63,495 nucleotides of DNA from positions 1 to 63,495 of the IMG/VR virus record IMGVR_UViG_3300049203_000046; one strand, 5' to 3'. Made by a program: the position numbers and the translations under genes. Shown one piece after another: positions 2,996-59,366 of the stretch (positions are counted from its first letter, which is position 1; each line of letters opens with the position of its first letter). This DNA comes from a virus. Its lineage: Duplodnaviria; Caudoviricetes. Under the pieces are notes generated by a model. It was not told the DNA's origin. It did not search any database and worked only from the letters and a program-made list of their open reading frames with translations.

Positions 2996-3020
2996 CCATC
3001 ACCTGAATTGCGCGAAGTAG
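2996..3020 (+). promoter_or_regulatory. 25-bp repeated promoter-like element, copy 2
   Basis: Identical to 725..749. Runs into TAGAAT. Confidence 0.65.
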
Positions 3021-3106
3021 AATTGAAGGTTGGCCGGCTTTCCGGCCAGCCAGCGAAGCCCTGCGCAATGGGCCGAGCACACCACGAAGCACGAAAGGAA
3101 TTGGAT

Positions 3107-11129: not shown

Positions 11130-11177
11130 TGGTGCTGCGGAGTGGGATTGAACCACCGACCTCACCCTTACCAAGGG
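11130..11177 (-). other. attP core = 3' half of tRNA-Thr(GGT)
   Basis: Minus strand reads CCCTTGGTAAGGGTGAGGTCGGTGGTTCAATCCCACTCCGCAGCACCA (anticodon loop, T-arm, CCA). 100 bp from the integrase stop. No 5' tRNA half. Confidence 0.9.
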
Positions 11178-11277
11178 AATTTTTGCTCCTGTTATCAGGG
11201 GCTTAACTCCCTCTCGGTCCCCCCAACAACGCCGCCCCGAGCAGGCGACGTTGGTGGTTAGTCTATATACCTCCGGG

Positions 11278-16487: not shown

Positions 16488-18383
16488 GCTGATGCCAAGC
16501 GTGCGGGCGATCTCCATGTCCGAGAGCCCGCTGGCATACATGCGGCGCGCACGCTGAACTGATGACGACGAACCGATCATTGCCTCCTCCCCCGTAATCA
16601 CATTCGAGCAGAGCGCCATCCACTGGACACTGTCGTGCCGGTCGGTCCAGTCGCGCACCTTGCCGTAGCGCATTTCGTAGATCGCGGTCGGCAGCCAGTC
16701 GATGCCAAGCTCAGCCCTCGCTTTCGCCTCCATCTTTGGCCACACGGGCTCCGAATAGGCGTCGGCGTCATAGATGCCGGCGGTCGCTTCGGCGCGCGCC
16801 TTGTCGCGGTAGACCTGCGTCACATAGAACTGCGTCTCGACGTTGTTGAGCTGCGCCGTCGAGCCGGCTTCACGGGAGAACCCGCCAGTGCCCTGCGGCT
16901 TGTTCTTGTGGTGCAGCACGATGGTGGCGATGTTGTAGGAGCGCAGCCGCACCATGATCCTGTTGATCGGAGCCCATGCGTCAGCGTCGTTCTCGTTGAT
17001 CCCTGGCCATGCCGAGCGGATCGTGTCGACCACGACGATGTCTGGCTTCTGCAAGCGGATATAGTCGCCGAGCTTCACGAGCGAACCGCGATCACTGAGC
17101 GGCATGTCGTCGCCTTCCAGCCATGGCGTCCAGACGCCAAGCCGATCACCGGCATCGCCATAGCTCTTGGTCATATTATCGAGGCGGCGCGCCAGCGTCA
17201 GCTTGCCGTTTTCGTAGTCGAGATAGAGGACGCGAAGCGGGCGCGGGAACTCGAACGGGCCAAGCCCAGGGATGCCAGCAGCGCCGGCCGCCATGAGATG
17301 CGACGTGACCATCGACTTGCCGTGGCCAGTGTAGCCAGAGATGTGGACGATGCCGCCGACCGGGAGGAATGGTTCGATGAGCATTGGCTGCGTGGCGCTG
17401 GCCACGGCCAAGGCAGAGGCATCCGACATGCGCAGGAGTGTAAGGGCCTTCGACGCTTCAGGCTCAGGCGCTGCCGGCCGCTCCGGTTCTGGTGGCGTGG
17501 CACGCTTCTCTGTCTCGAACTTCTCCACTCGCTCCGGGTGATTGCGGCGCTCTGCGGCCTCGATTGATCGAAGCGTCGCCTTCCATTCCTCGTCGTCGAG
17601 GCGGTCCATATAGAACTGGTCCATGAAGGCCAGGATCCGCCGTTCGAGATCAGCACCATATAGACCTTCGGCGACGCACTCGCCGGCATAACGGGCGACG
17701 CGCTCGTTGCGGCCATTGCTCGCGCCTGTCGGGATCTTCGAGCCAGGATAGTGCGTGGCGATATATTCGGACGTGCGCTCCCATTCGGTGTAGTTCGTGA
17801 GGATGCGAGAGCCTGACAAGTCCAGCTCTTCGAGGTTATGGACCGGCGTCTCCATTGGCCAGCCGTTCCATTCAGGCGCGTCGTCCAGCTCGTAGATCGA
17901 GAAGCCCTCGTCGCACTCGATGGAGTAGCCAGGCGCATTGAAGGCCACGACGTAGGAGCCGTCGCCACGGAAGTCGAGGCCGGGAAACTTTGGCCAGTCG
18001 AGGCCCGTCGATTGCGAGCCGACGCGCGGCCCGAAGCGGCGATCATCCCGAGGGTGGCGAAAGATCAGATGCCGACCGCGTCTCGTCTTGACCCTGATCG
18101 GGGACCATACACCGTTCTCTTTGCAGAAGGCGGCTGCGTCGTCGTTGTCGCAGTCGACCACGACAAAGCCAGAGCGCTCCCCTGTGATGACGCCGACCAA
18201 GGCGTCTGGAAATTTCTCTGCCCAAAACTCGATCTGGAGTTCTTGCGCAGGGTCGTTCTGATACTCCCGCCATTTGACGAGGGGCACCTTCTCTTTCTTG
18301 GTGCCTTGGCCGTTGTGCACGGGGATCAGGTTCCACCCGTACTCCAACATGACTCTGGCTTCGTCCCAGCAGGAACCGCTCAT
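16455..18383 (-). CDS. Prim-pol (AEP) primase fused to RepA/AAA_25 helicase, with C-terminal HTH
   Basis: GVITG..VVDCD..TRRGRH..DFRGDGSYVV. PriCT GRN. Walker A GYTGHGKS and Walker B VVVDT. Confidence 0.9.
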   Translation of the reverse strand: MSGSCWDEARVMLEYGWNLIPVHNGQGTKKEKVPLVKWREYQNDPAQELQIEFWAEKFPDALVGVITGERSGFVVVDCDNDDAAAFCKENGVWSPIRVKTRRGRHLIFRHPRDDRRFGPRVGSQSTGLDWPKFPGLDFRGDGSYVVAFNAPGYSIECDEGFSIYELDDAPEWNGWPMETPVHNLEELDLSGSRILTNYTEWERTSEYIATHYPGSKIPTGASNGRNERVARYAGECVAEGLYGADLERRILAFMDQFYMDRLDDEEWKATLRSIEAAERRNHPERVEKFETEKRATPPEPERPAAPEPEASKALTLLRMSDASALAVASATQPMLIEPFLPVGGIVHISGYTGHGKSMVTSHLMAAGAAGIPGLGPFEFPRPLRVLYLDYENGKLTLARRLDNMTKSYGDAGDRLGVWTPWLEGDDMPLSDRGSLVKLGDYIRLQKPDIVVVDTIRSAWPGINENDADAWAPINRIMVRLRSYNIATIVLHHKNKPQGTGGFSREAGSTAQLNNVETQFYVTQVYRDKARAEATAGIYDADAYSEPVWPKMEAKARAELGIDWLPTAIYEMRYGKVRDWTDRHDSVQWMALCSNVITGEEAMIGSSSSVQRARRMYASGLSDMEIARTLGISLFTIREWLGV

Positions 18384-18580
18384 TTCTCGACCACATAATC
18401 ACGCGCGTTGATCAGAGGGAACTCTGTGAGGATCGCGGCCAGCTGGTCGGTCGTCATCTTGCCCCGGCGGAAGATCGAATAGATCGCGGTCCTCTTTATG
18501 CCTGTGCGCAGGCGGACGAGGTTCGGCCCGCCGCAGTCGGCAATGAGCCGCTCGACGTCCATCGAAAGATTTTTGGACAT
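18380..18580 (-). CDS. Small Cro-like HTH protein (66 aa)
   Basis: LIADCGGPNLVRLRTGIKRTAIYSIFRRG. First gene of a divergent unit and flanked by operator-like sites. Confidence 0.65.
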   Translation of the reverse strand: MSKNLSMDVERLIADCGGPNLVRLRTGIKRTAIYSIFRRGKMTTDQLAAILTEFPLINARDYVVEK

Positions 18581-18645
18581 ATCACCCTCAGGGCTATTGA
18601 CAATACACCCCAGGATTATAAAAACTGTCACCAATAGCAACACAT
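18580..18645. promoter_or_regulatory. Divergent promoter/operator region
   Basis: TTGACA (+, 18597), TATAAT (-, 18620..18615), TATCACC at 18580, TGTCACCAATAGCAACA at 18626..18642. Confidence 0.65.
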
Positions 18646-18683
18646 TTTTGCGTCTACACCACCACGAAGCACGAGAGACCCCT

Positions 18684-19256
18684 ATGAGCGAAGACACTAA
18701 GCCGTCGCCTGACGACCCGTTCACGGAGTTCGCCAAGGCCATGGAGACGACGGGCGAAACCGTCGAGAAGATCAAGGCCGAGGCCCCGGCTATGCCTGGG
18801 CCTGCCAGCTCGGTCCAAGAGATCATCGACAGCTACGGCGAGTTCGCCGAGTACGTGAAGGTCAGATCGGCGGCCGAGCGCGCCTATGTGAAATCCCGCA
18901 AGGACTTCCTCGAAGCAGCCCTGAATGCCGAGCTGACCAAGCAGGGCTACGTGAAGAGCTTCAGCAGCAACGAGCCGTCCCCTTACATGGTCGGCACGAT
19001 CAGTGGTGAGAAGTTCGAGGCCAGCATCGACTACAGCGAGAAGGCCACCTTCAGCCAAGAAAAGCTGCGGGAGATCGACATGAACGTGACGGCCGGCGCG
19101 CCGGCCGTGTCCCTGCCCCCCGGTCTTTCCGTGAAGTATTCCGCCAACCCCGAGAAGGCCATCGCCGAAGACTTCAAGCACGACCTGATGGGCGCGATCA
19201 CCGGCTACGAATACGAGCGCAAGGTGAAGTTCGCGAAGATAGAGGAGGCCAAGTAA
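18684..19256 (+). CDS. Hypothetical protein of the recombination operon
   Basis: CACCAC leader. TAATG-coupled to the Sak4-like gene. Confidence 0.8.
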   Translation: MSEDTKPSPDDPFTEFAKAMETTGETVEKIKAEAPAMPGPASSVQEIIDSYGEFAEYVKVRSAAERAYVKSRKDFLEAALNAELTKQGYVKSFSSNEPSPYMVGTISGEKFEASIDYSEKATFSQEKLREIDMNVTAGAPAVSLPPGLSVKYSANPEKAIAEDFKHDLMGAITGYEYERKVKFAKIEEAK

Positions 19257-20089
19257 TGGCGTGGCGTCCGAAATCCACCATGGGCTCCGGCCTGCACGAG
19301 CCGAACAAGGTTCTCCTCTATGGCCATCACGGCTGGGGCAAGACTTGGCAGGTCCGCAATTTCCAGAAGCGCTACGGCAACGGCCTCCTGCTCTCTGGCG
19401 AGAAGGGTCTGAAGTCGCTGGCCGACGTCGACATTCCGCACATCGCATTCACGTCCTGGGACGGGCCGCACGACCCCGACAACGACGTCTATTCGTTCCG
19501 TGGCATGGCGCAGATGCTGACCCCGTCCTTCCTTCGGGACAACGATATCAACTGGCTGGCGCTCGACAGTATCACCGAGCTTTCGGAAATGCTGATGGCG
19601 TGGGCCAAGAAGGAAACCGAGGGCGAGAAGAACCGCTTCGCCGTGTGGGCGCTCTATAACGAGAAGATGATCGGCGCGATCAAATGGATCCGCGATCTTC
19701 CCGTCCACATCTATGTGACGTCGCTCGCCGCCGAAGGCGAGGATGACAGCGGCGGCTCGGACTTCTGGCCACACGTCCATGGCTCCAAGGTGGCCACGGC
19801 CATCCCCGCCAACTTCGACCATGTGTTCTGCGCCATCAAGCGCGACGTGGTCGAGGGCGACGACGTGAAGACGAAGCGCTTCATCGTCACCGAGCAAATG
19901 CGTGGATGGCACGGCAAGGCGCGCGACCCTTTCAATCGCTTGGCCGCCGTCGAGGAAGTCGACGACATCACTGAGCTGCTCGACCGCATGACGCGCTCGA
20001 AGGCTGATGACGAGAAGCGGGCCGAGACGCTGAAGGTGCTCGAAGCCAACAAGGCCAAGATCGAGGAAGCCGCGAAGGAGAAGGCGTGA
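19256..20089 (+). CDS. Sak4-like / AAA_24 ssDNA-annealing ATPase
   Basis: LLYGHHGWGKT and LALDSITE. Near the SSB. Confidence 0.85.
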   Translation: MAWRPKSTMGSGLHEPNKVLLYGHHGWGKTWQVRNFQKRYGNGLLLSGEKGLKSLADVDIPHIAFTSWDGPHDPDNDVYSFRGMAQMLTPSFLRDNDINWLALDSITELSEMLMAWAKKETEGEKNRFAVWALYNEKMIGAIKWIRDLPVHIYVTSLAAEGEDDSGGSDFWPHVHGSKVATAIPANFDHVFCAIKRDVVEGDDVKTKRFIVTEQMRGWHGKARDPFNRLAAVEEVDDITELLDRMTRSKADDEKRAETLKVLEANKAKIEEAAKEKA

Positions 20090-20283
20090 TGAAAAGATGG
20101 CTGCTCAAATCCGCGCCGCCGAGGATCGCCTTGGTCGCGATGTATGGCTGGATGTTTGGCGACAGCGCCGGTCGAGTTTACCGACAGGGTGATTTCTGGA
20201 TGGTCGACTTGCTCTTCGCAGTTATCGGCCTCGCATTCCTCGCCTACCTGATGTGGATCAACCGGGACGTCTACGTCGAATAG
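20086..20283 (+). CDS. Small membrane protein (65 aa)
   Basis: GTGA coupling and two hydrophobic stretches. Confidence 0.6.
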   Translation: MMKRWLLKSAPPRIALVAMYGWMFGDSAGRVYRQGDFWMVDLLFAVIGLAFLAYLMWINRDVYVE

Positions 20284-20387
20284 TGCCGGGGCGGACCCGC
20301 AGGGCACTCCTCCTCCCAGCCCTGTGTGTTGCCGGCGCTTAGCCCGACGCGACTTCCCCTCCTCCCAAGCCGCGTCGGGCACCCTTT
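20282..20387 (+). ncRNA. Cuckoo/alpha-r14-like sRNA element (two hairpins with CCUCCUCCC loops)
   Basis: GCAGGGC-actCCTCCTCCCa-GCCCTGT and GCCCGACGCG-..CCTCCTCCC..-CGCGTCGGGC, both intergenic. Confidence 0.7.
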
Positions 20388-20413
20388 CACCACAAATACC
20401 ATGAGCAAGGAGC

Positions 20414-20968
20414 ATGAACATGAGCGCATTTGGTGGTTCTGATTTCGGGGGTGTCGATCTCGACCTCACCGAGAACAGCGTGAGCGAAGGTTTGCCGGTA
20501 CTGAAGGCCGGCATCTACGACGTCATGAGCGGCGACGTGGAGCTGGTCAAGAACAAGGGTGGCCAGATGCTGAAGATCGTCCTGGCTGATCTCGCCGGCA
20601 GTGGCCAGATCACTCAGAACTTCAACATCATCCACTCGTCGTCCGAAGCGCAGCGCATCGGCCGCGACCAGCTCAAGACCTTCCTCACCCACGGCGGCCA
20701 TCCTGACCCCGACCATCCGTTCAAGCACGCAAAGGAAGCGATGCTTGGCCTGAAGGTCCGCATTTGGGTCGAGCACGACGGCAAGTATGTGAAGAACAAC
20801 AAGGAATACGACAGCTTCGCGGTGAAGCGGATCGGCAAGGTAGACCCGGATAATCCTGCACCCGGACCTTCCGCCGTTCAGCCGACGCGGCAGAGCGGGA
20901 CGTCGTCCTCCCCGTCATCGTCGTCGGCTTCGAGCCGCACGGCTATGTCGGACGACATTCCGTTCTGA
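20414..20968 (+). CDS. DUF669-like single-stranded DNA-binding protein
   Basis: C-terminal DDIPF tail. LKAGIY..GQMLKI pattern. Follows the Sak4-like gene. Confidence 0.8.
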   Translation: MNMSAFGGSDFGGVDLDLTENSVSEGLPVLKAGIYDVMSGDVELVKNKGGQMLKIVLADLAGSGQITQNFNIIHSSSEAQRIGRDQLKTFLTHGGHPDPDHPFKHAKEAMLGLKVRIWVEHDGKYVKNNKEYDSFAVKRIGKVDPDNPAPGPSAVQPTRQSGTSSSPSSSSASSRTAMSDDIPF

Positions 20969-20979
20969 CGATCATAGTC

Positions 20980-21054
20980 AGAGCCGGTGCTACCGCCCGT
21001 CAGCACGGGCTTTGATGCGAGGGGCGAGCCAGGTCAAGGGGCTCGCCCTTCTGG
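20980..21054 (+). terminator. Two tandem hairpins after SSB
   Basis: AGAGCCGGTGCT/AGCACGGGCTTT and GGGCGAGCC/GGCTCGCCC. Confidence 0.5.
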
Positions 21055-21078
21055 TTTACTGGAGCGAAATGGAAGCTA

Positions 21079-21924
21079 ATGGACAAGATCGACGACGAAA
21101 TGCTGGAAGTCCTGATGGCCATGAGCGCCGAGCCGGCGCGGCCACTCTTCTCTGGAGCGCGCACGATCTCAGCATCGATTGTCGGCAGCGAATGCGATGC
21201 CGCTTTGGCCTTCACGATCCGTGGCTTCAATGAGGAAGAGCCGACCGAGACACGGCGCAGGCTCTATGAGGTTGGCAATTTACTGGAACCCCGCGTGATC
21301 CAGCACATGCGCAGCATCGGGCTGGCCGTCGTGGACCGCGACCCAAAGACCGGCAGGCAGTTCATGCTGACCAGTCGAGAGGGCCACGTCAAAGCCTACC
21401 TCGATGGCTATATCGAATGGGATGATGCCGAGAGCGAGCCCGTCGAGATCAAGTCTATGAGCGACGACCGCTTCAAGAAGGTCGTGCGCGAAGTTGCCAA
21501 GCGAGGAAAGCAAGCTGGCGTGAAGCAGGCCGAGCCCAAGTATTACGATCAGATGCAGCTGATCATGGAGTTGGCCAACCGAGAGAGCTGCATCTTCTTG
21601 GTCTACAACAAGAGTGACTCCAAATATTTGGCCATCCGAGTGGCCAAGGATCTGGACCGAGTCAGTTTCATCTTCGAGAAGATCGACCGCGTGCTCGACG
21701 GCGGAGGCGCGAAGATCTCAAAGGATCCGCTCTCCGATCATCGGTGCTTCCTGTGTGGCCACAAGAATGGAGCATGCACGAAGGTGAAGGGGCAGGCCAA
21801 GATTGGGTGCCAGCGCTGCATCCACGCGACGCCAGACGTCGATAAGAAGTGGTACTGCTCAAAGCACAAAGTCCTCGCACCGTTGTTGTGCGGGGACTTC
21901 GAGTTCTGGCAACCTCCGCTTTAG
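21079..21924 (+). CDS. Cas4-like PD-(D/E)XK exonuclease
   Basis: SASIVG.EC, YLDG, VEIKS, YYDQMQ and a C-terminal Cys cluster. Confidence 0.8.
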   Translation: MDKIDDEMLEVLMAMSAEPARPLFSGARTISASIVGSECDAALAFTIRGFNEEEPTETRRRLYEVGNLLEPRVIQHMRSIGLAVVDRDPKTGRQFMLTSREGHVKAYLDGYIEWDDAESEPVEIKSMSDDRFKKVVREVAKRGKQAGVKQAEPKYYDQMQLIMELANRESCIFLVYNKSDSKYLAIRVAKDLDRVSFIFEKIDRVLDGGGAKISKDPLSDHRCFLCGHKNGACTKVKGQAKIGCQRCIHATPDVDKKWYCSKHKVLAPLLCGDFEFWQPPL

Positions 21925-24900
21925 TCTTCCGAATAGAGCTTTGGAGCGTTCTTCGCCGTGGCATTGCTGCGGCGTTGGCTTTTCGGGATGGCCTCGTCGA
22001 TGATGCTCTCGACGATGGGGTTCTGCCCGCCGAGGACCGGGATGCGACGAAGAGCTTCGCGCATTGCCGTCCGTTCGGGATAGGTCGAGCGCTCGTTGCC
22101 ATCGAGAGCGCCCTGCATAACATGCCAGGCCGAGATCCCGGTGCCGGCGCTCGGGCCGAACACGGTCGAGATCATCCGCTCCGTACCGAACGCGCCGTTC
22201 TCTGCCTGAGTGGCAGCATCCGTGAACATGCCGGCAATGATGCCGAGGCCAGACGCCGAGAAGAAGCCGGCGATATACTGGCCAGCGAAGGCGTCGAGCG
22301 TCTCCCGATCCACGATCTGCTCCAGAGAGCCGAAGCGCTGCTGGTAGTTCTTGTCGTAGCCAGGGAAGGACCGCATGTACTTGCTGAGCGTGCGCTCCTG
22401 CTTCTCACGATCCTGGCCATCACCGCCACGGCCGCGCACCACATCCATGAGGGCGTTGGTGCCGTAGCCGACGAGCGGCATCAGCGACAGCAGATAGAGG
22501 GCGCGCTTGGTGTTGCCGGTCCCACGGATGTCGCTGACGTCGAACGGGCGGCCAAGCCTGTCATTGATGGCCAAGCGGATGTCATCGTAGAGGACTTCGC
22601 GCGCCATCCGGCCCATCATGGTCGGGAAGGTCTTCAGCTGGAACATGACCGCGCCCCACGGGGTCTGAGCCCACAGCGGAACGTCGTCAGGGTTCGGCGA
22701 GAAGACTGCGTCGTCGACGAACTTCATGAGCGCCACGCGAACCTGATCCGTCTCGACTGCCTCGGGCGCATCGATGGTCTTGCGGTTCGTCGCGAAGCTC
22801 TCCAGCCCATAGCGCTTCAGAAAGCGATAGTTCTGGCGGAAGGGCGTTGACTGCTGCTGGATCGGCAGGCTCGGGTTGAAGGCGTTGAGCGCCTTTTTCT
22901 GCGCGACCTTGAAGGCTTCAAGGCCAACGGCAGTGCCGACCGCGCGCATCTCATCAGTCCACGGCGTCAGGCCGGTGGCATTGAAGAAAGCGGAGGTCAG
23001 TCGATTGGCCGGCGTGCCCGTCATGTGGGTCATGCGGTTGTGCAGCAGGCTCTCGATGCTGGCCCCGACGTTCTTCATCGCGTCCCGGTAATCAGGGTCG
23101 GACATGTACTTGCCCCAGGCGCGGAACGATGTGCGAATGCGGCCAGAGCGAACGACCGGCAGCAGCGCGTCGCCGAGCGAAGCGATGGTCGTATAGGACA
23201 AGAGCGTCAGCGCGTTGAAGGCGCGCAGGTTCTTGGCCGCCTTGACCATGTAGGTCGTGTCGCTGATCAGCGGCCGGCGCGCAGCCACCTTCATCGAGTT
23301 GACGAGGAAGCGGCCGTCCTGCGACGTGATGTTCTGAGCGTCTCCGCCGAAGTCGCTGAGCGCATCGACGATGGCATCGACGCGGCGCTCGTACACAGCG
23401 GACGGGCCGTCCTTCCGGGTCGGGTCAGGAATAGCCAGGTCCATGAGGTACTTGCGCGCCTGCTGACGGCCGAGCTTGTTGTAGATCTCGATCACTTCGT
23501 CGGCCGCAGCCACGGCCATGTGAGGCCGATCCTCGAAGGGCATCGGATAGGTCTCGACGAAGGACACGTCGACCGGACCATCCTCGGGAGTGACGGCGAA
23601 GGTCGAGTGCTCCTGCGTCCGGCGGGACGAGAGGAGGTGCGCAATGCCGTCGCGGCCGCGCGTCACCACGCCCATGTAGTCGCCGAAGGCATGATTGCGG
23701 AAGCCGAACTTCTTGGCCAGCGAGAGGCGGTGGGCGACCTGGTCGAAGTAGCGGACCAGATAGCTTTCGAGATCCTGTTCGAGGAAGGGCTTCAGGTACT
23801 TCAGCGCTTCCGGGTACTGGTCGAGCGAGATCTTGCGGGCATAGTCGAGGTTTTCGGCGGCGCCAGTGGTCAGCGAGTGGGCGTCAGGATCCCACATCGA
23901 CTGGTCATCGACCTCTGCCAGCTTGGCCACGACCTTGGTGGCCTGATCGCGCAGGGTGGACTGCTCGACCGGGCGGCCCATTCTGATGGCCTCGATCTCG
24001 AAGTATTTGGCGAAGGCGTCGATGGCCTTGTCCGGCTCCTTGCGGATCGCGGTCTGCGACCAGATCTGCGGGAAGTAGTTCTTGCCGCGCGAGCCCATCA
24101 TGACGCCGGCATCGCGTAGATCGAAGAACGCCTTCGACAGAGAGTCGCGGATAGACTTGAGGGCTGCCCTCTCCTCGCCCGTAAGCTTGGCTTCGTGGCG
24201 CGGATTGGTCGGCTCCCACAGCGCGTTCAGCAGACGGGTGTGGCTCTCGGGTACGATGTTGCGGCCGGTCGAAGATGCGAGCCAGCGCTTCACCGCAGAC
24301 GGCGCGTCAGGCAGCGTGCGGATCGCGCGCAGCGGGCCGGGGGCCGACTTGGTACCGAGGATGCGGCGGGCAAATTCCTGCTGCACCCAGGGGAAGTGAT
24401 CCTCGAACCAGTTGCCAAGCGTGACCATTCCGGCCGAACGCATCCGCTCGGAGTTCATGCCGAGGAAGCGATGCTTCATGCGCAGCGGGGTCAGTGCGTC
24501 GGAGCGGCGCGGAACACGATTGCGAGAGAAGTTCAGCAGCCAATGCTTCAGGCCGTGCTCGTCAGCCTTGTTGGCCATGACGAAGCCGGGAGGAGGCGTG
24601 AAGTTCTTCAGCGTCGGCTCGGGCGCGAGCAGGCTCAGGTTCATGGCCCTACCGACCGGCGACTCCAGTGTGTCGTCGAACTGCATGCGAGGCGCGTAGA
24701 AGAGCTGGTCCATGAAGTCTCTGACCGGAGCGATCTGGCTGCGGTCGAAAACCTTGGAGACGCGACCATACTTGTCCAGCATGCTGTCGTGGCCAAGGGT
24801 CTGGATGAAGTCCGCCGACGAGAAGTCGCCGGTCAGAACCTTGTCCAGCTCGCCGACGAGCTGCTCGTTGGATTGGCCAAGCTTGAAGCTGGAGAGGACC

Positions 24901-27900
24901 GCATCGATCTTCTTGCCGACAGCTTCAGGGATCTCGCCCTCTTCGACGGCATCGACGACGCTGTCGCGCAGCTGCTTCACCATCTTGGGATTGTCGATCA
25001 CGGTCGCGAGCTTGAAGGGCGTCTTCGCCTTCATGGCCACGATGGAGAAGGTCGGCACCGAGACGCCGAGTTCAGCCAAGACATTGAGGTGATCGTCGAG
25101 CGAGCGCAGCAGGCCCTCGCGCTTGTCAGCCGGCGCGGCCATGATCGCGTCACGGACCTTGTCGGCCTTGTGCGCGGTGAGGACGGCGAGTGCCTTGCGC
25201 TCTTGTCCGCCGAATGCCGAGGCCGGCATGTTGGCGATGGAGGTGCGCTTGCGCGGCTTGCCGGACTTGGTTTTCTCGAAGCCGGCCACCGGCAGATCGA
25301 GGTAGGACGTGAAGCCATCGAACGGCGAACGGACCAGATCGAAATCGACCGGGATGCTGTCGTCGTCGAGGAACTGAGACCCGCGCACGATGCCGATCTC
25401 GTTGAAGCCTGCCCTGGCCAGGATCGATGGGTCGACGCCTACCTTGTCGATAGACAGATCGCCGAACTTCACCAGCTGGCCAGTCGTCAGCTCGCTGAGG
25501 CCGAGGTTGTCGGCCACGCGCTCGGTCGACAGCATGTCGCCGAAATAGGTCGCGCGATGCAGGGCGTTGCGCACGCTGCCGTTCTCGATCAGGCCGTTCA
25601 GCAGGTAGCCAAAGCGGTCGAAGAGTTCGGAGGCGATGCGGCGCTCGCCGGGCTCGATGCGGCGGTCGATCATGCCGAGCGTGCTCTGCATGAGTTCGAC
25701 TGCGTCAGCCACGCTGTAGTCGAGAGCATCAAGCTCAGCCTTGAGGGCCGGGCTGGTATCGTAGATCAGGGCCACAGTGCGGTCGACGAGGCGGTCCATG
25801 TCGCCGCCGGCAGTGTAGGCTTCAGCCAAACCCTTCACGCGGCCACGCAGCGCGCGCCATTCCTCGGAGTCCGGGGTGAGCGTGATCGCCTTGTCGTTGA
25901 CGCCGTTGTGCTCCATGCGCAGCGCCCGATAGGCGAGCGTGCGCGCGGCATACTTCACCCGGCGGGAGCGGTGCTCGATGTTCTGAAGCAGAGCCGTGAC
26001 GATGGGCGTGGCAGATGGAGGGACGCCGATGTCGGCGCTCTCGATAGATCCGCGGTTCTCAAGGATCTCGGCGCGGATGGCGTTGTTGACCGACTTCGAG
26101 CGCGGCGTCATCTGCACCTTGGTCGTAGCGGCCACAGCGGCAACGTCGCCATCGGTGGTGTCGTCGCCGTTCAGGATCTTCTCGCGCATCGACTTGACGC
26201 CTTCGAGGGCGTCGTCGATGTCGGTCGCCTTGATGCCCTCGGGGACGTGGGCCACGGCCAGCTCGCGACGGACAACCTCATCGGAGGCGTCTTCGGCCAG
26301 CTCGGTGTTGCTGGTTACGCGACGCAGCAGATCATCGGTGGCCAGCTCCTTGGAGGAAGCGGCCGCAGGGTTGGCCTCAATCGTTTGGCCAAGAGCTGCG
26401 ATACGCTCGTTGGCGCGGCGACGGGCTTCGTCGATGCGTGCGCGCTTCAGTGCGGCGCGGGCATTCTGAGCGGCGGCGACGCGACGCTTGCGCAGCTCCT
26501 CGACCTGCCGGCCATTGGAGCCGCCCTTGTAGCGGGTGAAGGCGTCGATCTCGTTGCCCTTGACCTGAAGGATCTGGCCGTTGAGGTCGCGGAAGGTGAC
26601 GACCTGGTCGGCACTGACATCCTCGACGGTCCACTGGTTGCCGCGAGTGTCGGAACGCTTGAAGACGTCGCCGATAGAGATGGCATTGAAGCGGCCAACG
26701 GAATACTGCCGGACCTCCTTGGGCAGGACGTCGCCATCATCGAGCTTGCCCTGCGGGATGATGCCGCTCTGCTCGTAAGCGGTGTTGAGCGCCTCGCGCA
26801 TGTCGGTGAGCATGCGTAGGAAGCCGGCCTTCTCCTTGCCGTCCTCGCCACGGAAGACGGAGAGCAGAGCCTTGGCTGCCTTGCTGTCGTCGTCGGTCGA
26901 GAGGCCAGCCTCAATGGCTTCGACGCCGGAGACGACGTCAGGCATATCGCCGAGGTTGACCAGATCGTTCTCGTCCATTGCCTGCACCTGACCGCGACGG
27001 GCCAGCGAGAGCATGCGCCGCATCTTCTTGGAGCGCGGCACGATGTCGAGGTAGCGATTGAACGGGCCGAAGGGCTCGTCGGATTGAGAGTAGAGGGGCT
27101 CGACCTGCGTCTTCTTGGAGCGCGCGACGTTGGCCAAGAGGCGGCGCTTCTCTTCGAGCGAGGTCGTCGAACCAATGAGCAGACGCATCGACGAGCGGTA
27201 GGCTTCAACGGCCGCCGCTGGATCGAGCGAGTCTTCTGCCTTCTGCCAAAGCTCCATGGCATCGTCGACCGCAGCAGAGACCTGCTTCAGCTTCTGGATG
27301 AACGGAGCGCGGGACTGGTCGCCCATGGCCAGCAGCTCGTCCATCGGGAGCGACATGTAGTTCGGGCGCGCAGCAATCGACGGATCGCTCGTGATCGGCT
27401 GCATCTCGGACGCTGACGGCGAGAGATCGGGGATGCTCTCCTCTGGCGTCAGATGGCCAGCCTGTAGCGCGTCGATGTTCTCTGCCACCTCGTCGGCCTG
27501 CCGATCCGGCATGACCTTGAGGAAGAGCTTTTCGAGGTCGCGGTCGACCATGTATTTGCGGCCCACGACCGTGTCGTAGATACCCTTGATGATGCGAGCG
27601 AAGCGCTGCCACATCTTCGGGTTCGACGCGCTATCGAGGCGAGCGGTAGCCCAGCGGGCGAAGCTCTCGGCGAAGAACTCAGCCGGGTTCGAGAAGTATT
27701 TGGTGAGATGGTCAGCGAGCTGCGCCTGGCTCGGGTCGATCTTGCCGGCCGGCGCGATGCCGAGCGACTTGCGAACCGATGCTTCGCTCGTGAGGTTGTT
27801 GGCCGCCCACTCCCAGAACTCGGCGCGGTCGCGGGCACTGAGCAGGTTCATGTGCGCCCAATGGCCAATCTCGTGGAAGAAGCTGAAGCTCTGCGGGACG

Positions 27901-30900
27901 GTGGCCTTCGACTTCTTGTTGACCAGAATGGTGCTGGTCTTCAGGTCGAGCGCCATATCGGGGATCGCTTCGGAGACCGCGATCTTCGGAGCCATGCCAT
28001 CGGCCAGGCGACCGAGCAGGTCGACCATGGGAGCCATCACGTCGTGCGGCACCTTGGCGAAGATGGTCTTCACGCTCTTGATGGCGGCGTCACGAAGCGG
28101 CTCGGCCCGGCGGAAGCCGTTCGGAGCGATGATGTCTTCGACGTCGGCGATGGCCTTCAGCAGGCTGACCGACTGCGCCGTTACGCCAGGGAGAGGCGTG
28201 CGGTGCACGAGATCGGAGAGAGCGATGACGTCCTTGCCGGTGAAGTTCTCGCGCAGCGTCATGAGGCCAAGCAGCGGATCGACGCCCGGCGCGGACGCCA
28301 TGGCCATGATCGCATCGTTTACGCGGTTGGCTGCCTCCTGAAGCTTCGGCACCAGAGACGGGGTGAAGCCTTCGGCGCTGAGTTCCTCGACCTTCGGCGG
28401 CTTGACCGTCACACGGCGCGCATTCTCGAACTTCTCGGCAAAGCCCGTGCGAGCACGCTCAAGCCCGACCTTGTTCTTCGGCGTGGACTTGTCGTGGTAT
28501 TCGACCGTCCAGTCGTCGGGGCTCGACTTGCCATAGATGTTCTTGGCTGTCTGGCCGGCTTCGATCTGCTTGTCGGTGGGGACGCGGACGTCGCCGGTCT
28601 TCTTGTTGATGAAGAAGGCGCGAAGGCCATCCTTCTCAAGCGCCGGCAGACCGGAGGTGCTGACGGGCAGTTCGGGCAGGATCGTCTTGGCTCCTGCGAT
28701 TTCGGCGAGCGACTGGAGGAAATCGATGTAGCCCATCGACTCCGCGTTCGTCGGCGCAGAGCGGCCAACCTTGATCGCATTGTCGACGCTGGCGGCGCGA
28801 GCCGGCGCGCGTTCCTTGCGGTTCGACATCGAGGCCCGCATGCTCGACATGACGTCGACCATGACGGACGGCATCTGGTCTCCGCTGAACGGCAGGTTCG
28901 CGTCCTTGGCCGCGTTGCGCCAATCGGAGAAGATCTTGCCGGAGCGGCCAGAGACGTAGACTACGTCGCCCTTGGTCGGCTTGTTCTTGGAGTCGCGGAC
29001 GCGCTCGAAGCCGTTGGCCACGAATGGCATGACGGATGAGCGAACAAAGGCGCGGCCCTCCTTCTTGGCCGTCTCGCGGATCTCGTTCCAGTTCCGCTGG
29101 AGATCGTCGGACCCGTCGCTGAGCTGGGCAAGATCCTTCTTCGAGAGCGAGCGCTCGGACATCAGCTCTTCCGGCGTCAGCTTGCGGCCAAGCTTCAGCT
29201 CGATCTGCGCGAGCTTCTCGTTCAGCTCGTAGGAGCGCGAGGCGAGCTGTCGCGCCTTATCGAACTTGAAGGTGGCCGCGTTCGGCGCAGCGCCTTGGAT
29301 CGAATAGGTCGAGCCGTCGTCGGCTGCCTTGTCCACAAACTCCTGGCCGGGACGAAGCATGGCCTGAAGCTTGATGATCGGGTTGCCCTCGGCGTCGAGC
29401 GGGATCGGCGACGCCTTCTGCATGCGAGGATCGAGAGAGGCCACGTCCTTCTTGGACTGCGCGGTGCGAGCGCGATAGACCTCGTAGCCGGCGGCACGGT
29501 GAGCGGCTTCTTCGCTGAAGCCCTGCTTCGTGAACTCGTCGACAAAGTCGAAATACTGCGCGCGCTCTGCCTTGTCGCGCGGCTTCATCTCGCCTGTGGC
29601 CTGAACCTCCGGCTTATTCTCGACTGACTTGATAGTCTTAACGTCGCCGCTGACCTTGATGCCGGGCCGATCCGTGCTCGGAGCCTTGAACGACTTGCCG
29701 TCACCGAGCTGCGAACGATACACGTCCATGAGAGCGGCAACGTCGGCGTCTGAATATGCGCCCTTGAGGACGTCGCGGTTGTAGCTCGCGATCATGTTGC
29801 GGACCACTTCCGGGTCGGCGAGCGCCGCCTGGATGCTATCCTTTGGCACCTTCATCTCGGCCATCTTGGTCTGAGCATCGCTCAGGACTTCGATGAGCTG
29901 ATTGACCGAATTGACGAAGGTGTCGGACGCGCCATTGTTGGTGACATGGGCGTCGATGTCGGACTGGATGATGAGGCCATCCGGGCGGGACGCCTTCACC
30001 TCGGCAAGGTCAACGCCGAGCTTGGCCGCGCGCTCCTTCGCGCCACGGGATGCCTTCACTGGCGTCGCCGCGATATCGGCTGTCGAAGCCGTGACGGGCA
30101 TCGGCTTGGCCACTGGCGTCTCTTCAGCAGCGACGCCAGGCTTCTCGGTCTTTACCTTCGATGCGTCGAGCTTGACGCCGGACGGCTTGGTGACTTGTTC
30201 GGTGACTTGTTCAGTAGCGGCCGCTTCGGTCTCAGCCTTGGCAGCAGCCTCCTTGGCCATGGCTTTCGCCTCGGCCTCCATGGCGGCCTGCTCTTCGAGG
30301 ATACGGTCTGCATCGGCAGAGCTGACCTGATCGTCGGTGAGGCGAGCCTGGTTCTTGGTCGCTGCGTCGGTGCGCGCTGCGAGCTGGCCGGTGTCCTTGG
30401 CGACAACGCCCTCTGCGGCAGCCATTGTGCTGGCGTCGTTGGCGACGATCTTGGCGCGCTGCTTGAGCGCGGCGCGGCGCGCAGCTTCATCGAGGGAGCC
30501 ATCTTCCTGAGCGAAGCGTCGACCTTCTTCGAGCAGCTGCTTGTTGGCCACGCGCTCCTGAATGAACGCGGAGATGTCCTCGGGGACATTGCTGGCCATC
30601 ACCTCCTCGAACCGGGCACGGTCCTCGGCGAGCTGGCGCACCATCTCCATGCCCTGCGCGCGCTTGGCCTGATCAGGGTCGATGAGAAGTTCTTCGACGA
30701 TCTTCTGCCGGCGCTCCAGAGAGGCCGGGAACTGGCGCGCCGCTTCGAGAGTGGCGATCTGGTCGAGGGTCTCGTTGATCTGGTCGTCGAGTTCGCCAAC
30801 GCCATCGACGCCGATCTCATTGTCGGCGCGCAGGTTGGTGAGCTTCTGGCGGAGTTCGGAGAGGTTGTCGTTGAGCGGCCCAAGGTGAGACGCGATGCGG

Positions 30901-31877
30901 ATCTCTCGCTTCTGGTCCTCAGCCTGCTTGGCTGCCTGGATCGGGTCGACCGGCGGGTTGAGCGCGTCTTGCTCAGCCTGCTTCATCGCCTCGATGCCCT
31001 GGCGATAGATGTCGGGCTCCATCTGCTGGAGACGCTGGAGACCTCCCTCCTCATCAAGGAGCGAACTGATCTCGGCCTCCGAGTAACCCTTGGCCTTCAG
31101 GCCCTCGACAACGCGCTGGCCACGGAAGCCGCCGATAGCGCCGCCGATGGTGCCGAAGATGCCGCCGAGGCCGGCAGAGAGCGCCGCGCTCGACGCTGCG
31201 CTTTCGAGCACACGGGTCGCGGATGTCTCATCTGATAGGCCAAGCTCTTGCTCGACGCTCTGTTGGCCAATATCGGAGATGGCTCCTGTGATCGCGCCTT
31301 CGGCAGCGCCAACCTTTGCGGCCTGCACGAGACCGCGACGAGCGCCGGCCGTGATGCCTGCGCGAGCGCCGGCCACGAATGGAGACGCCATACCGCCGGA
31401 GACAGCCTCGACGCCGCCGAGCACCCAATTGACCGGGTCGGTGACGATAGCGCCGGCAATGGACGGGAGGGCCTCGGAGACGGAACGGCCATCCTTATTG
31501 AAGATGGTCGGTGCGTTCTGCATCGCGATGTGGAGGCGGCTGGCGCGCAGCATGGCCTCGTCGGTCTTGGAGTTCCGAGCCAGATCCGACTGAGAGCCGT
31601 AGGTCAGGAAGAATGAGCCAAGCGTGTTGAGGTCACGATAGTTCGAGCTATCGTGCAGCATCGCATCGAGTTCTTCGTCGGTCTTGTCGTTGATGCCGCG
31701 CTCAGCGAAGAAGCCGCGCAGGTCGTTCAGATACTGAGCGTCGCGTAGGCGGTTCTTGTAATCGAAGCTTTCGTATTGGCCTTTGGCCATGACCCCCGTG
31801 TTTGCAGGGCGGTCGAGAGGCTGGCCAGGCTGCCAGCTCAGCAGGTAGTCGAGATCGTCGGCCAACGGAAGCTCCAT
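21921..31877 (-). CDS. Giant internal virion/ejection (polyvalent) protein, 3318 aa
   Basis: Last gene of the structural module. Gly/Ala-rich N-terminus, PSBD-like segment, HEIGH..EFFAE zincin motif. Confidence 0.8.
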   Translation of the reverse strand: MELPLADDLDYLLSWQPGQPLDRPANTGVMAKGQYESFDYKNRLRDAQYLNDLRGFFAERGINDKTDEELDAMLHDSSNYRDLNTLGSFFLTYGSQSDLARNSKTDEAMLRASRLHIAMQNAPTIFNKDGRSVSEALPSIAGAIVTDPVNWVLGGVEAVSGGMASPFVAGARAGITAGARRGLVQAAKVGAAEGAITGAISDIGQQSVEQELGLSDETSATRVLESAASSAALSAGLGGIFGTIGGAIGGFRGQRVVEGLKAKGYSEAEISSLLDEEGGLQRLQQMEPDIYRQGIEAMKQAEQDALNPPVDPIQAAKQAEDQKREIRIASHLGPLNDNLSELRQKLTNLRADNEIGVDGVGELDDQINETLDQIATLEAARQFPASLERRQKIVEELLIDPDQAKRAQGMEMVRQLAEDRARFEEVMASNVPEDISAFIQERVANKQLLEEGRRFAQEDGSLDEAARRAALKQRAKIVANDASTMAAAEGVVAKDTGQLAARTDAATKNQARLTDDQVSSADADRILEEQAAMEAEAKAMAKEAAAKAETEAAATEQVTEQVTKPSGVKLDASKVKTEKPGVAAEETPVAKPMPVTASTADIAATPVKASRGAKERAAKLGVDLAEVKASRPDGLIIQSDIDAHVTNNGASDTFVNSVNQLIEVLSDAQTKMAEMKVPKDSIQAALADPEVVRNMIASYNRDVLKGAYSDADVAALMDVYRSQLGDGKSFKAPSTDRPGIKVSGDVKTIKSVENKPEVQATGEMKPRDKAERAQYFDFVDEFTKQGFSEEAAHRAAGYEVYRARTAQSKKDVASLDPRMQKASPIPLDAEGNPIIKLQAMLRPGQEFVDKAADDGSTYSIQGAAPNAATFKFDKARQLASRSYELNEKLAQIELKLGRKLTPEELMSERSLSKKDLAQLSDGSDDLQRNWNEIRETAKKEGRAFVRSSVMPFVANGFERVRDSKNKPTKGDVVYVSGRSGKIFSDWRNAAKDANLPFSGDQMPSVMVDVMSSMRASMSNRKERAPARAASVDNAIKVGRSAPTNAESMGYIDFLQSLAEIAGAKTILPELPVSTSGLPALEKDGLRAFFINKKTGDVRVPTDKQIEAGQTAKNIYGKSSPDDWTVEYHDKSTPKNKVGLERARTGFAEKFENARRVTVKPPKVEELSAEGFTPSLVPKLQEAANRVNDAIMAMASAPGVDPLLGLMTLRENFTGKDVIALSDLVHRTPLPGVTAQSVSLLKAIADVEDIIAPNGFRRAEPLRDAAIKSVKTIFAKVPHDVMAPMVDLLGRLADGMAPKIAVSEAIPDMALDLKTSTILVNKKSKATVPQSFSFFHEIGHWAHMNLLSARDRAEFWEWAANNLTSEASVRKSLGIAPAGKIDPSQAQLADHLTKYFSNPAEFFAESFARWATARLDSASNPKMWQRFARIIKGIYDTVVGRKYMVDRDLEKLFLKVMPDRQADEVAENIDALQAGHLTPEESIPDLSPSASEMQPITSDPSIAARPNYMSLPMDELLAMGDQSRAPFIQKLKQVSAAVDDAMELWQKAEDSLDPAAAVEAYRSSMRLLIGSTTSLEEKRRLLANVARSKKTQVEPLYSQSDEPFGPFNRYLDIVPRSKKMRRMLSLARRGQVQAMDENDLVNLGDMPDVVSGVEAIEAGLSTDDDSKAAKALLSVFRGEDGKEKAGFLRMLTDMREALNTAYEQSGIIPQGKLDDGDVLPKEVRQYSVGRFNAISIGDVFKRSDTRGNQWTVEDVSADQVVTFRDLNGQILQVKGNEIDAFTRYKGGSNGRQVEELRKRRVAAAQNARAALKRARIDEARRRANERIAALGQTIEANPAAASSKELATDDLLRRVTSNTELAEDASDEVVRRELAVAHVPEGIKATDIDDALEGVKSMREKILNGDDTTDGDVAAVAATTKVQMTPRSKSVNNAIRAEILENRGSIESADIGVPPSATPIVTALLQNIEHRSRRVKYAARTLAYRALRMEHNGVNDKAITLTPDSEEWRALRGRVKGLAEAYTAGGDMDRLVDRTVALIYDTSPALKAELDALDYSVADAVELMQSTLGMIDRRIEPGERRIASELFDRFGYLLNGLIENGSVRNALHRATYFGDMLSTERVADNLGLSELTTGQLVKFGDLSIDKVGVDPSILARAGFNEIGIVRGSQFLDDDSIPVDFDLVRSPFDGFTSYLDLPVAGFEKTKSGKPRKRTSIANMPASAFGGQERKALAVLTAHKADKVRDAIMAAPADKREGLLRSLDDHLNVLAELGVSVPTFSIVAMKAKTPFKLATVIDNPKMVKQLRDSVVDAVEEGEIPEAVGKKIDAVLSSFKLGQSNEQLVGELDKVLTGDFSSADFIQTLGHDSMLDKYGRVSKVFDRSQIAPVRDFMDQLFYAPRMQFDDTLESPVGRAMNLSLLAPEPTLKNFTPPPGFVMANKADEHGLKHWLLNFSRNRVPRRSDALTPLRMKHRFLGMNSERMRSAGMVTLGNWFEDHFPWVQQEFARRILGTKSAPGPLRAIRTLPDAPSAVKRWLASSTGRNIVPESHTRLLNALWEPTNPRHEAKLTGEERAALKSIRDSLSKAFFDLRDAGVMMGSRGKNYFPQIWSQTAIRKEPDKAIDAFAKYFEIEAIRMGRPVEQSTLRDQATKVVAKLAEVDDQSMWDPDAHSLTTGAAENLDYARKISLDQYPEALKYLKPFLEQDLESYLVRYFDQVAHRLSLAKKFGFRNHAFGDYMGVVTRGRDGIAHLLSSRRTQEHSTFAVTPEDGPVDVSFVETYPMPFEDRPHMAVAAADEVIEIYNKLGRQQARKYLMDLAIPDPTRKDGPSAVYERRVDAIVDALSDFGGDAQNITSQDGRFLVNSMKVAARRPLISDTTYMVKAAKNLRAFNALTLLSYTTIASLGDALLPVVRSGRIRTSFRAWGKYMSDPDYRDAMKNVGASIESLLHNRMTHMTGTPANRLTSAFFNATGLTPWTDEMRAVGTAVGLEAFKVAQKKALNAFNPSLPIQQQSTPFRQNYRFLKRYGLESFATNRKTIDAPEAVETDQVRVALMKFVDDAVFSPNPDDVPLWAQTPWGAVMFQLKTFPTMMGRMAREVLYDDIRLAINDRLGRPFDVSDIRGTGNTKRALYLLSLMPLVGYGTNALMDVVRGRGGDGQDREKQERTLSKYMRSFPGYDKNYQQRFGSLEQIVDRETLDAFAGQYIAGFFSASGLGIIAGMFTDAATQAENGAFGTERMISTVFGPSAGTGISAWHVMQGALDGNERSTYPERTAMREALRRIPVLGGQNPIVESIIDEAIPKSQRRSNATAKNAPKLYSED

Positions 31878-58958: not shown

Positions 58959-59366
58959 ATGTCGACCTACAACATGGTCAATGGCACGCATCCCTTTGCG
59001 GGAGCGGTGCTTACGATGCTGGACAAGGAAGCCGATTGGTTCCCTCGCTTCCGTGACGCCTACATTCTCAGGGATCCAGCGCGTCTCGTCGTGATGACGC
59101 GGACTGGCGAAGGCAGCTGGGCCGACGAGGACACGGTCGCCAAGAACAAGGACATCGAGGCGTTGCCCGGCTTCATCGAGGCCAAGAACGACAGCTTCGA
59201 CAAGACCTTCCGGCACTTCTACTTCGAGGTGCCGGAGGAATATCGCGAGCGCACGGCAAACGTCATCAAGATGGTCGTGGACGAGGAAGGCATCGACCAC
59301 GACAAGCTCTTCCGCAACCCCATGAACACGTTCGTCGAGCGTGTCGAAGCAATGGGGAGGAAGTGA
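58959..59366 (+). CDS. Phage hypothetical protein
   Basis: AGGAG SD. RFRDAY..TRTG..D.FD.T pattern. Confidence 0.8.
   Translation: MSTYNMVNGTHPFAGAVLTMLDKEADWFPRFRDAYILRDPARLVVMTRTGEGSWADEDTVAKNKDIEALPGFIEAKNDSFDKTFRHFYFEVPEEYRERTANVIKMVVDEEGIDHDKLFRNPMNTFVERVEAMGRK

Follow-up and report, generated by a model that had tools for sequence, protein, structure and literature searches.

Two adjacent hairpins with anti-Shine-Dalgarno loops and cuckoo RNA architecture in the recombination operon of a tailed phage from soil

Introduction

Cuckoo RNAs, represented by alpha-r14/NfeR1 and CcsR, have been described as chromosomal or plasmid small RNAs (sRNAs) of Rhizobiales and Rhodobacterales. They consist of two to four adjacent hairpins with variable stems, each carrying a CCUCCUCCC loop (PMC4615179; PMC3927594). 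This sequence is the proven seed of NfeR1, occluding ribosome-binding sites, and the three redundant anti-Shine-Dalgarno (aSD) loops of that RNA block the ntrB and ABC-transporter ribosome-binding sites independently of Hfq (PMC10746234). CcsR1-4 are two-hairpin RNAs that RNase E releases from the 3' untranslated region (UTR) of a small open reading frame (ORF) by cleavage at U-rich single-stranded sites (PMC8034643). Here we describe a module of two aSD-loop hairpins in the tailed virus record IMGVR_UViG_3300049203_000046 of IMG/VR, which was analysed over its whole length of 63,495 bp (hereafter, the window). On balance, we lean towards the explanation that the module is a captured cuckoo-type aSD RNA which would be co-transcribed with a recombination operon, possibly processed, and pair with GGAGG-type ribosome-binding sites.

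Two adjacent hairpins with identical loop motifs

The window appears to be a complete virus genome (CheckV, 100%), is linear and has a G+C content of 61.5%. Its plus strand carries two hairpins separated by 2 nt, both of which are evident from the sequence, from RNAfold predictions and from a motif-in-loop test. The first, extended hairpin (20282..20339) has an outer stem of 8 bp, including one U-G pair, formed by 20282-20289 (AGTGCCGG) and 20332-20339 (CCGGCGCT), and an inner stem of 8 bp, including one G-U pair (20298-20305/20319-20326), which closes a 13-nt loop with the exact 9-mer CCTCCTCCC at 20309-20317. The second hairpin (20342..20380) has a G+C-rich stem of 10 bp (20342-20351/20371-20380) and displays the same exact 9-mer in its apical loop, at 20358-20366. 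The two hairpins, the loop motifs and the outer stem are as described in the original prediction, which had been made from the sequence alone. Both 9-mers are unpaired in the minimum free energy (MFE) and centroid folds of positions 20270-20400 (RNAfold), and the MFE of this segment, -52.7 kcal/mol, compares with -39.25 +/- 3.29 kcal/mol in 200 dinucleotide shuffles, none of which folded as well (z = -4.09).

The pairs U20284-G20337 and G20299-U20325 are possible in plus-strand RNA only; because such G-U pairs become A-C mismatches on the opposite strand, we assign the RNA reading to the plus strand, on which the genes of the operon around the hairpins are encoded as well. A/U-richer unpaired stretches occur before, between and after the two hairpins. 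An unstructured, A/U-richer linker on the same strand (20381..20419) holds the ribosome-binding site (AAGGAG, 20407-20412) of the next gene, which encodes a putative single-stranded DNA-binding protein (SSB)-like product. No U-tract terminator follows the second hairpin, and a terminator scan called no site within this linker.

The 9-mer CCTCCTCCC is present in five copies in the window, compared to 0.87 expected, and none of 100 shuffles reached five. The other three copies were considered as parts of the element and rejected, all of them being located within genes, where they either supply proline codons or run antisense to the primase gene. A descriptor requiring the exact motif in a hairpin loop closed by at least 6 bp retrieved two cases in the window, exactly these hairpins, against a mean of 0.11 and a maximum of 2 in 100 shuffles; with at most one mismatch, there were five cases in the window against 2.52 expected, and no credible degenerate third copy. 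One of the 100 shuffles also gave two motif-in-loop cases somewhere in 63 kb, as would be the case if the module were a chance pair of G+C-rich hairpins in a genome of this composition. However, the two hits are adjacent and exact, have stems of 8 and 10 bp, and fall into the only sizeable non-coding gap of the operon, in addition to the z-score of the fold and the excess of the motif. Structure and motif are thus beyond chance, and coincidence, already disfavoured, appears extremely unlikely.

Relation to the cuckoo RNA family

With two adjacent hairpins and CCUCCUCCC in each loop, the element qualifies as a two-hairpin form by the published structural definition of cuckoo RNAs (Reinkensmeier & Giegerich 2015). 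According to the authors of the family, covariance models perform poorly for it, the loop alone being conserved (PMC4615179; PMC3927594). At the gathering thresholds of Rfam, there was no hit in the window. In a permissive search of 351 nt around the module, the only meaningful responders were ar14 (RF02344; 28.6 bits versus a gathering score of 58.8; E = 0.0012, which becomes ~0.2 when scaled to the whole window, so that the E-values are then not significant) and CcsR1 (RF02791; 19.5 bits versus 65.3; E = 0.017), with loops aligned to loops. Hairpins 2 and 3 of the ar14 model align to hairpins 1 and 2 of the module, and the first hairpin of the model aligns poorly into coding sequence; the CcsR1 alignment covers 20345-20377, that is, hairpin 2 only. 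When Rfam was applied to 17 of 30 other viral loci with both motifs in loops (see below), the ar14 gathering score was attained by all five loci with three hairpins (70.8-81.2 bits), and the 12 loci with two hairpins stayed below gathering for every family; a sub-gathering score is therefore what a genuine two-hairpin module yields. The likeness to alpha-r14 and CcsR put forward in the original prediction is hence borne out by the architecture and by the identity of the two responding models but not by their scores, which are far below gathering, and the covariance-model check proposed there, which returned sub-threshold ar14 and CcsR1 matches, is a weak one for two-hairpin forms.

The flanks of the loops (CACUCCUCCUCCCAG ... 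CCUCCUCCCAAG) match 38 stretches in a collection of species-representative bacterial genomes. All matches named to the genus or order level belong to Rhizobiales (Rhizobium, Neorhizobium, Pararhizobium, Shinella, Mycoplana, Hoeflea and Brucella/Ochrobactrum), two are metagenome-assembled genomes labelled Proteobacteria only, and none comes from Rhodobacterales. These bacterial loci are of the three-hairpin ar14 type, with promoter-like and terminator features and with stems unlike those of the module. Across the 38 bacterial loci and 29 other viral modules among the matches listed in the survey described below, the loops are identical and the stems unrelated, and homology to the element is not demonstrable. 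When 16 other viral modules were aligned with MAFFT, RNAalifold returned no consensus pairs, since their stems do not stay in register.

Among the described systems, CcsR1-4 (RF02791; Rhodobacter sphaeroides RSs0680a-d) share with the module two adjacent CCUCCUCCC-loop hairpins in the 3' UTR of a small ORF, as well as the lack of an own promoter; CcsR1-4 are made from a longer transcript (PMC8034643), and the sequence context suggests the same for the module. Indeed, the layout of the window copies that of CcsR except for the identity of the ORF, which is hydrophobic rather than a DUF1127 gene. Unlike CcsR1-4, there is one module instead of four tandem copies, no terminator follows, such that the transcript would have to run into the SSB-like gene, and the carrier is a virus. 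Alpha-r14/NfeR1 (RF02344; Sinorhizobium meliloti and other Rhizobiales) has the identical aSD loop motif, and the loop flanks of both hairpins of the module match Rhizobiales ar14 loci, but ar14 is a three-hairpin RNA with a promoter of its own and a U-tailed terminator hairpin, whereas the module has two hairpins and none of these signals. The phage and prophage sRNAs of enterobacteria, such as DicF, svsR and the Pas sRNAs, are likewise regulatory RNAs of mobile elements, some of them processed from operon transcripts; however, they represent unrelated sequence families, and none is known to be built on repeated aSD loops or to come from an alphaproteobacterial phage.

We found no report of phage-borne cuckoo RNAs in the open full-text literature, a scope that excludes subscription papers and supplementary tables, the latter of which might list prophage copies; the word 'phage' occurs 0 times in PMC4615179 and PMC3927594. 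The architecture of the RNA is known. New are its carriage by a virus, its placement in a recombination operon with no DUF1127 gene, promoter or terminator accompanying it, and its repeated occurrence in phage early regions that are unrelated to one another.

Insertion between the Sak4-like and SSB-like genes

The module is located in a plus-strand block at ~18.7-21.9 kb that encodes, in this order, an unknown 191-aa protein, a Sak4-like protein, a 65-aa ORF, the hairpins, a protein of 182/184 aa and a Cas4-domain exonuclease. The first three genes are joined by stop/start overlaps (TAATG, 19254-19258; GTGATGA, 20086-20092). The Sak4-like single-stranded DNA-annealing ATPase (19256..20089) matches phrog_124 (3.7e-34) and AAA_24 (2.9e-23), and the PD-(D/E)XK exonuclease (21079..21924; phrog_1990, 6.1e-42) is the last gene of the operon.

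The 65-aa ORF (20086..20283, starting with GTG at 20086 or ATG at 20089) overlaps the Sak4 stop with its start, and the hairpins begin at its stop codon. It looks translated, because its G+C content by codon position (0.55/0.38/0.77) matches that of the neighbouring genes, AAGGAG precedes the overlapping start, and the product includes a hydrophobic stretch at residues 40-58 (KD19 maximum, 2.27), the latter in agreement with the original prediction. The protein is an orphan: a search among 5.8 billion proteins recovered only itself, and Pfam gave no family at E<=0.01, with only Mntp (E 0.24) appearing when the limit was raised to E<=10. DUF1127 did not match even at that limit, and the earlier statement that the ORF is not DUF1127-like therefore stands.

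The downstream gene (20420..20968, with ATG at 20420 or, alternatively, a start at 20414) encodes a protein that ends in DDIPF and matches phrog_2300 at 7e-4. Its D(D/E)IPF C-terminal tip is kept in all five aligned homologues. Bacterial SSBs characteristically terminate in such a tip, and Sak4 proteins are known to function together with a cognate SSB. The place after Sak4 and the conserved tip thus suggest an SSB-like protein, as had been proposed; sequence and profile searches gave no Pfam or PDB match except for a chance hit (E 0.65), and a single-sequence AlphaFold model was unusable (predicted local distance difference test score, 37.9).

For comparison, we collected 13 loci with Sak4 relatives (L126-L138; 45-55% identity), including eight from IMG/VR, four from metagenomes and one from Roseobacter phage CRP-810, which together represent about four distinct lineages. 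In all 13, the two genes share 1-29 nt where Sak4 ends and the SSB-like gene begins, whereas in the window they are 330 nt apart, and none of the relatives has intergenic space or the motif between the two genes. Hence, the whole plus-strand segment at 20090..20413, which separates the Sak4-like and SSB-like genes by ~325-330 nt and comprises the 65-aa ORF, both hairpins and the leader of the SSB-like gene, is missing from the relatives and is not a diverged copy of something that they carry; by this comparison, the 65-aa ORF and the hairpins are an insert between the Sak4-like and SSB-like genes. CRP-810 is also the nearest cultured phage (primase 43% and TerL 44% identical). No close relatives were found with the SSB-like protein in IMG/VR, and Sak4 recovered, from IMG/VR and metagenomes, no kin closer than 45-55% identity. 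GenBank phages yielded no blastn match to either 18400-22000 or the module by itself, although the low-complexity filter may hide the motif. A search of sequencing runs with the window returned one DNA run, from a soil metagenome that may be the source of the window, and no RNA run; the soil run contains one contig identical to the window, with no variants and no form without the insert. Because this sole run is a soil metagenome, and in the context of the Rhizobiales loop flanks, the host of the phage is probably a soil alphaproteobacterium.

The restricted distribution of the insert raises the question of whether it is a functionless passenger, that is, a recently acquired fragment of a host ar14-type gene, with two hairpins but without the promoter and terminator hairpin, which came with the orphan ORF and has not decayed. 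The absence of the module from all 13 relatives and the orphan status of the 65-aa ORF are consistent with such an origin, as is the third, terminator hairpin of the bacterial loci with the same loop flanks, which is missing here. Nevertheless, both 9-mers and all three stems are intact, the G+C content of the insert (0.611) equals that of the phage and its codon-position profile is also phage-like, and, among the matches listed below, similar two-hairpin modules occur in unrelated early regions of phages at a rate far above that of the control. We consider a passenger without function unlikely.

Similar modules in other viruses

To place the module in a broader context, IMG/VR was scanned for two copies of the motif 25-55 nt apart, which returned at least 120 stretches; among the matches listed, to which all counts of this survey refer, 30 of 120 have both motifs in loops closed by stems of at least 7 bp, compared to 2 of 119 in a reversed-motif control. 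One of the 30 (L117) is a low-G+C tandem repeat, leaving 29 credible loci, of which 14 are metagenome-derived and 15 are prophage predictions from isolate genomes. Five of the 30 are ar14 at the Rfam gathering score.

The gene context of nine two-hairpin loci was read with PHROGs and Pfam, and in eight of these there are typed phage early genes within ~3.5 kb. In L088, a RecE/YqaJ exonuclease gene (phrog_434, 1e-91) starts ~15 nt after the module, and in L044, the module heads a gene run including exonuclease VIII (phrog_412, 1.5e-30) and RecT (phrog_561, 6.1e-59); together with the window, this amounts to three cases of attachment to recombination genes. Elsewhere, the module is located between an Ant antirepressor gene and a small ORF (L057), after a CI/S24-like repressor (L108), before a CII-like activator (L070), near a primase (L116) or near DNA methyltransferases (L043 and L078); the single ORF tested in L036 had no match in PHROGs or Pfam. 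The two-hairpin modules of L044, L057, L088, L108 and L116 share with that of the window the architecture and the orientation of the flanking early genes. Furthermore, other modules, like the one in the window, are often directly upstream of the ribosome-binding site of the next gene: the second hairpin ends no more than ~45 nt from the next gene start in the window and in at least five other viral modules (L043, L044, L057, L088 and L108). By contrast, stems and neighbouring genes are unrelated to those of the window, and no protein similarity connects the other loci to it besides unrelated terminase hits elsewhere. Judging from these contexts, phages appear to carry cuckoo-type hairpin pairs recurrently in their early, regulatory and recombination regions.

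Eight uncultivated viral genomes (UViGs) from isolate genomes (L018, L029, L030, L040, L063, L083, L110 and L119) have one two-hairpin module type in common, with a conserved flank, GGATCCGCTTGTTCGCCAG, after the module, which may represent a conserved prophage-associated cuckoo locus. The next typed gene in L029 encodes a DUF4942 protein, and Pfam searches of the neighbours in L017 and L029 were uninformative on phage context. Modules directly upstream of homologous 65-aa proteins, which are unrelated to the 65-aa ORF of the window, are found in L043 (2112-2188, minus strand) and L108 (670-755, plus strand; phrog_22869, E 3e-4), and may form a conserved cassette of a module and a small protein. 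In L081 (2692-2769, minus strand) and L109 (~11170-11250, plus strand), the two hairpins are inside an ORF of ~400 aa with a third-position G+C of 0.81-0.83; either the ORF call overruns the module or the hairpins overlap coding sequence. A 62-aa ORF just downstream of the module in L057 (5363-5551, plus strand) scores 26.5 bits on the Pfam Acb2/Tad1 hairpin domain, marginally short of the cut-off of 27 bits; both namesakes of this domain are sponge proteins with an anti-defence function.

Transcription and predicted targets

A scan of 18300-22100 called no sigma-70-like promoter or terminator-like site near the hairpins; lacking a promoter and terminator of its own, the module is therefore most likely transcribed as part of the polycistronic plus-strand mRNA. 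The sole terminator-like hairpin called on the plus strand in this region is at 21954..21974, after the exonuclease gene, and is the likely end of the operon transcript, although the consensus scan behind it found three sites, not above the number in shuffles (3.5). Given its setting, the module might also be viewed as a cis-acting transcription element: an attenuator, or a put-like RNA whose two stem-loops would modify the RNA polymerase transcribing the early operon. The two-stem-loop architecture would suit such a function, as would the position within early and recombination operons or at their start (the window, L044 and L088). However, the loop motif is the cuckoo seed and no known antiterminator motif, hairpin 2 has no U-tract and there is no terminator-like site between hairpin 2 and 21954, which makes this role very unlikely.

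Under the captured-RNA explanation, a two-hairpin aSD RNA, cuckoo-class by its architecture, would have been acquired by the phage and carried as a moron. The module would form the 3' UTR of the orphan small hydrophobic ORF, with ORF and hairpins having been inserted together between the Sak4-like and SSB-like genes, and would be transcribed within the operon mRNA. Each loop would then offer single-stranded CCUCCUCCC, and the phage RNA would, on the model of NfeR1, pair with GGAGG-type ribosome-binding sites of host or phage mRNAs, lowering their translation. Release as a species of ~100 nt by RNase E-type cleavage in the flanking A/U-rich single strands, as for CcsR1-4, is conceivable, and the analogy with CcsR makes the linker at 20381..20419 a candidate site for RNase E entry (PMC8034643); alternatively, the module may act while still within the mRNA.

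Duplexes between the loops and phage gene starts were predicted for a crude call of 62 genes. The best predicted partner is the gene starting at 59366 (366 aa; -17.8 kcal/mol). The ribosome-binding site of the Sak4-like gene (GAGGAGG, 19242..19248, plus strand), a perfect 7-nt complement of the loop motif, is predicted to form a duplex of -16.0 kcal/mol with loop 2 and ranks sixth of 62, making it a candidate target in cis or in trans. The site of the 65-aa ORF ranks ninth, and that of the SSB-like gene ranks 33rd, the median. The suggestion in the original prediction that phage genes might escape targeting accordingly does not hold uniformly. At real-looking gene starts, the sites most complementary to the loops are 19242-19248 and 59355-59365 (GGGGAGGAAG), the latter upstream of the gene at 59366.

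The ranking of the operon's own sites brings up a serious rival, in which the hairpins stay in the operon mRNA and act purely in cis as an intercistronic element. They could shield the Sak4-ORF65 segment from 3' exonucleases, uncouple the translation of SSB from ribosomes arriving from upstream, or fold back on the Sak4 and ORF65 sites and thereby set the Sak4:SSB ratio. The module comes without its own promoter and terminator and breaks an otherwise translationally coupled chain of genes (the overlaps at 19254-19258 and 20086-20092), its best partners in the operon are the upstream ribosome-binding sites rather than that of SSB, and the short distance from hairpin 2 to the next gene start recurs in other viral modules, all of which is in line with a role in cis. 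Yet a stabiliser or insulator needs no two identical 9-nt loops equal to a known trans-acting seed, the relatives manage well although their Sak4 and SSB genes overlap directly, and the pairing energies are predictions. A purely cis-acting element has, in our view, a distinct though lesser chance of being correct; a cis role on the same operon and the captured-RNA explanation are not mutually exclusive.

Several points weigh against the captured-RNA explanation. The Sak4 and ORF65 sites are predicted to pair well, and a purely host-directed role is therefore not implied; the duplex predictions cover phage gene starts. PF06568 (DUF1127) is found nowhere in the phage, which is thus without a DUF1127 partner, no promoter or terminator was called near the hairpins, and the search of sequencing runs returned no RNA run with the sequence. 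The ar14 and CcsR1 scores are below gathering and the scaled E-values not significant, some of the 15 prophage predictions from isolate genomes may include host flank, and the module is present in none of the 13 relatives found, so that there is no orthologous conservation or covariation.

A broader scenario, speculative and in our opinion rather doubtful, is that alphaproteobacterial phages have repeatedly captured the host cuckoo module into early, recombination and regulatory operons, where, upon infection or induction, a viral mimic of NfeR1/CcsR-type stress- and nutrient-responsive host sRNAs would flood the cell and silence GGAGG-dependent host mRNAs (transporter or NtrBC-type regulons), perhaps also tuning phage recombination genes. 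If true, this would amount to a virus-encoded mimic of a whole family of host sRNAs, of which the module in the window would be one case, taken up in a cassette together with a small membrane protein. Should the viral copies be expressed, they would provide phages with a simple, portable way to interfere with translation initiation, and alphaproteobacterial phages would join a phage-sRNA field so far dominated by enterobacteria. The loci collected in the survey, recurrently positioned in early and recombination operons, form a concrete set that is open to testing.

Other features of the phage and its relatives

Downstream of the recombination operon, on the minus strand, a giant ORF of 3318 aa (21921-31877) is 55% identical over 666 aa to a syntenic ORF in L126/L127; its counterpart in CRP-810 is annotated as hypothetical. 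An N4-type virion RNA polymerase was considered for this protein and dropped, there being no PHROG family at E<=1e-5. Two large plus-strand ORFs, at 3008-5146 and 5590-7452, match PHROGs for porphyrin biosynthesis/ATPase (phrog_249, 1.6e-56) and CobT-like cobaltochelatase (phrog_1576, 2.1e-57; phrog_17276, 6.2e-31), and may constitute a CobS/CobT-like auxiliary gene pair. Among the Sak4 relatives, a metagenome contig of 1,530,927 bp (L137) carries, at 666833-672678, a Sak4/SSB/primase block 55-57% identical to that of the window, suggesting an integrated relative or a chimeric assembly. An integrase is present in CRP-810, and the phage group may be temperate.

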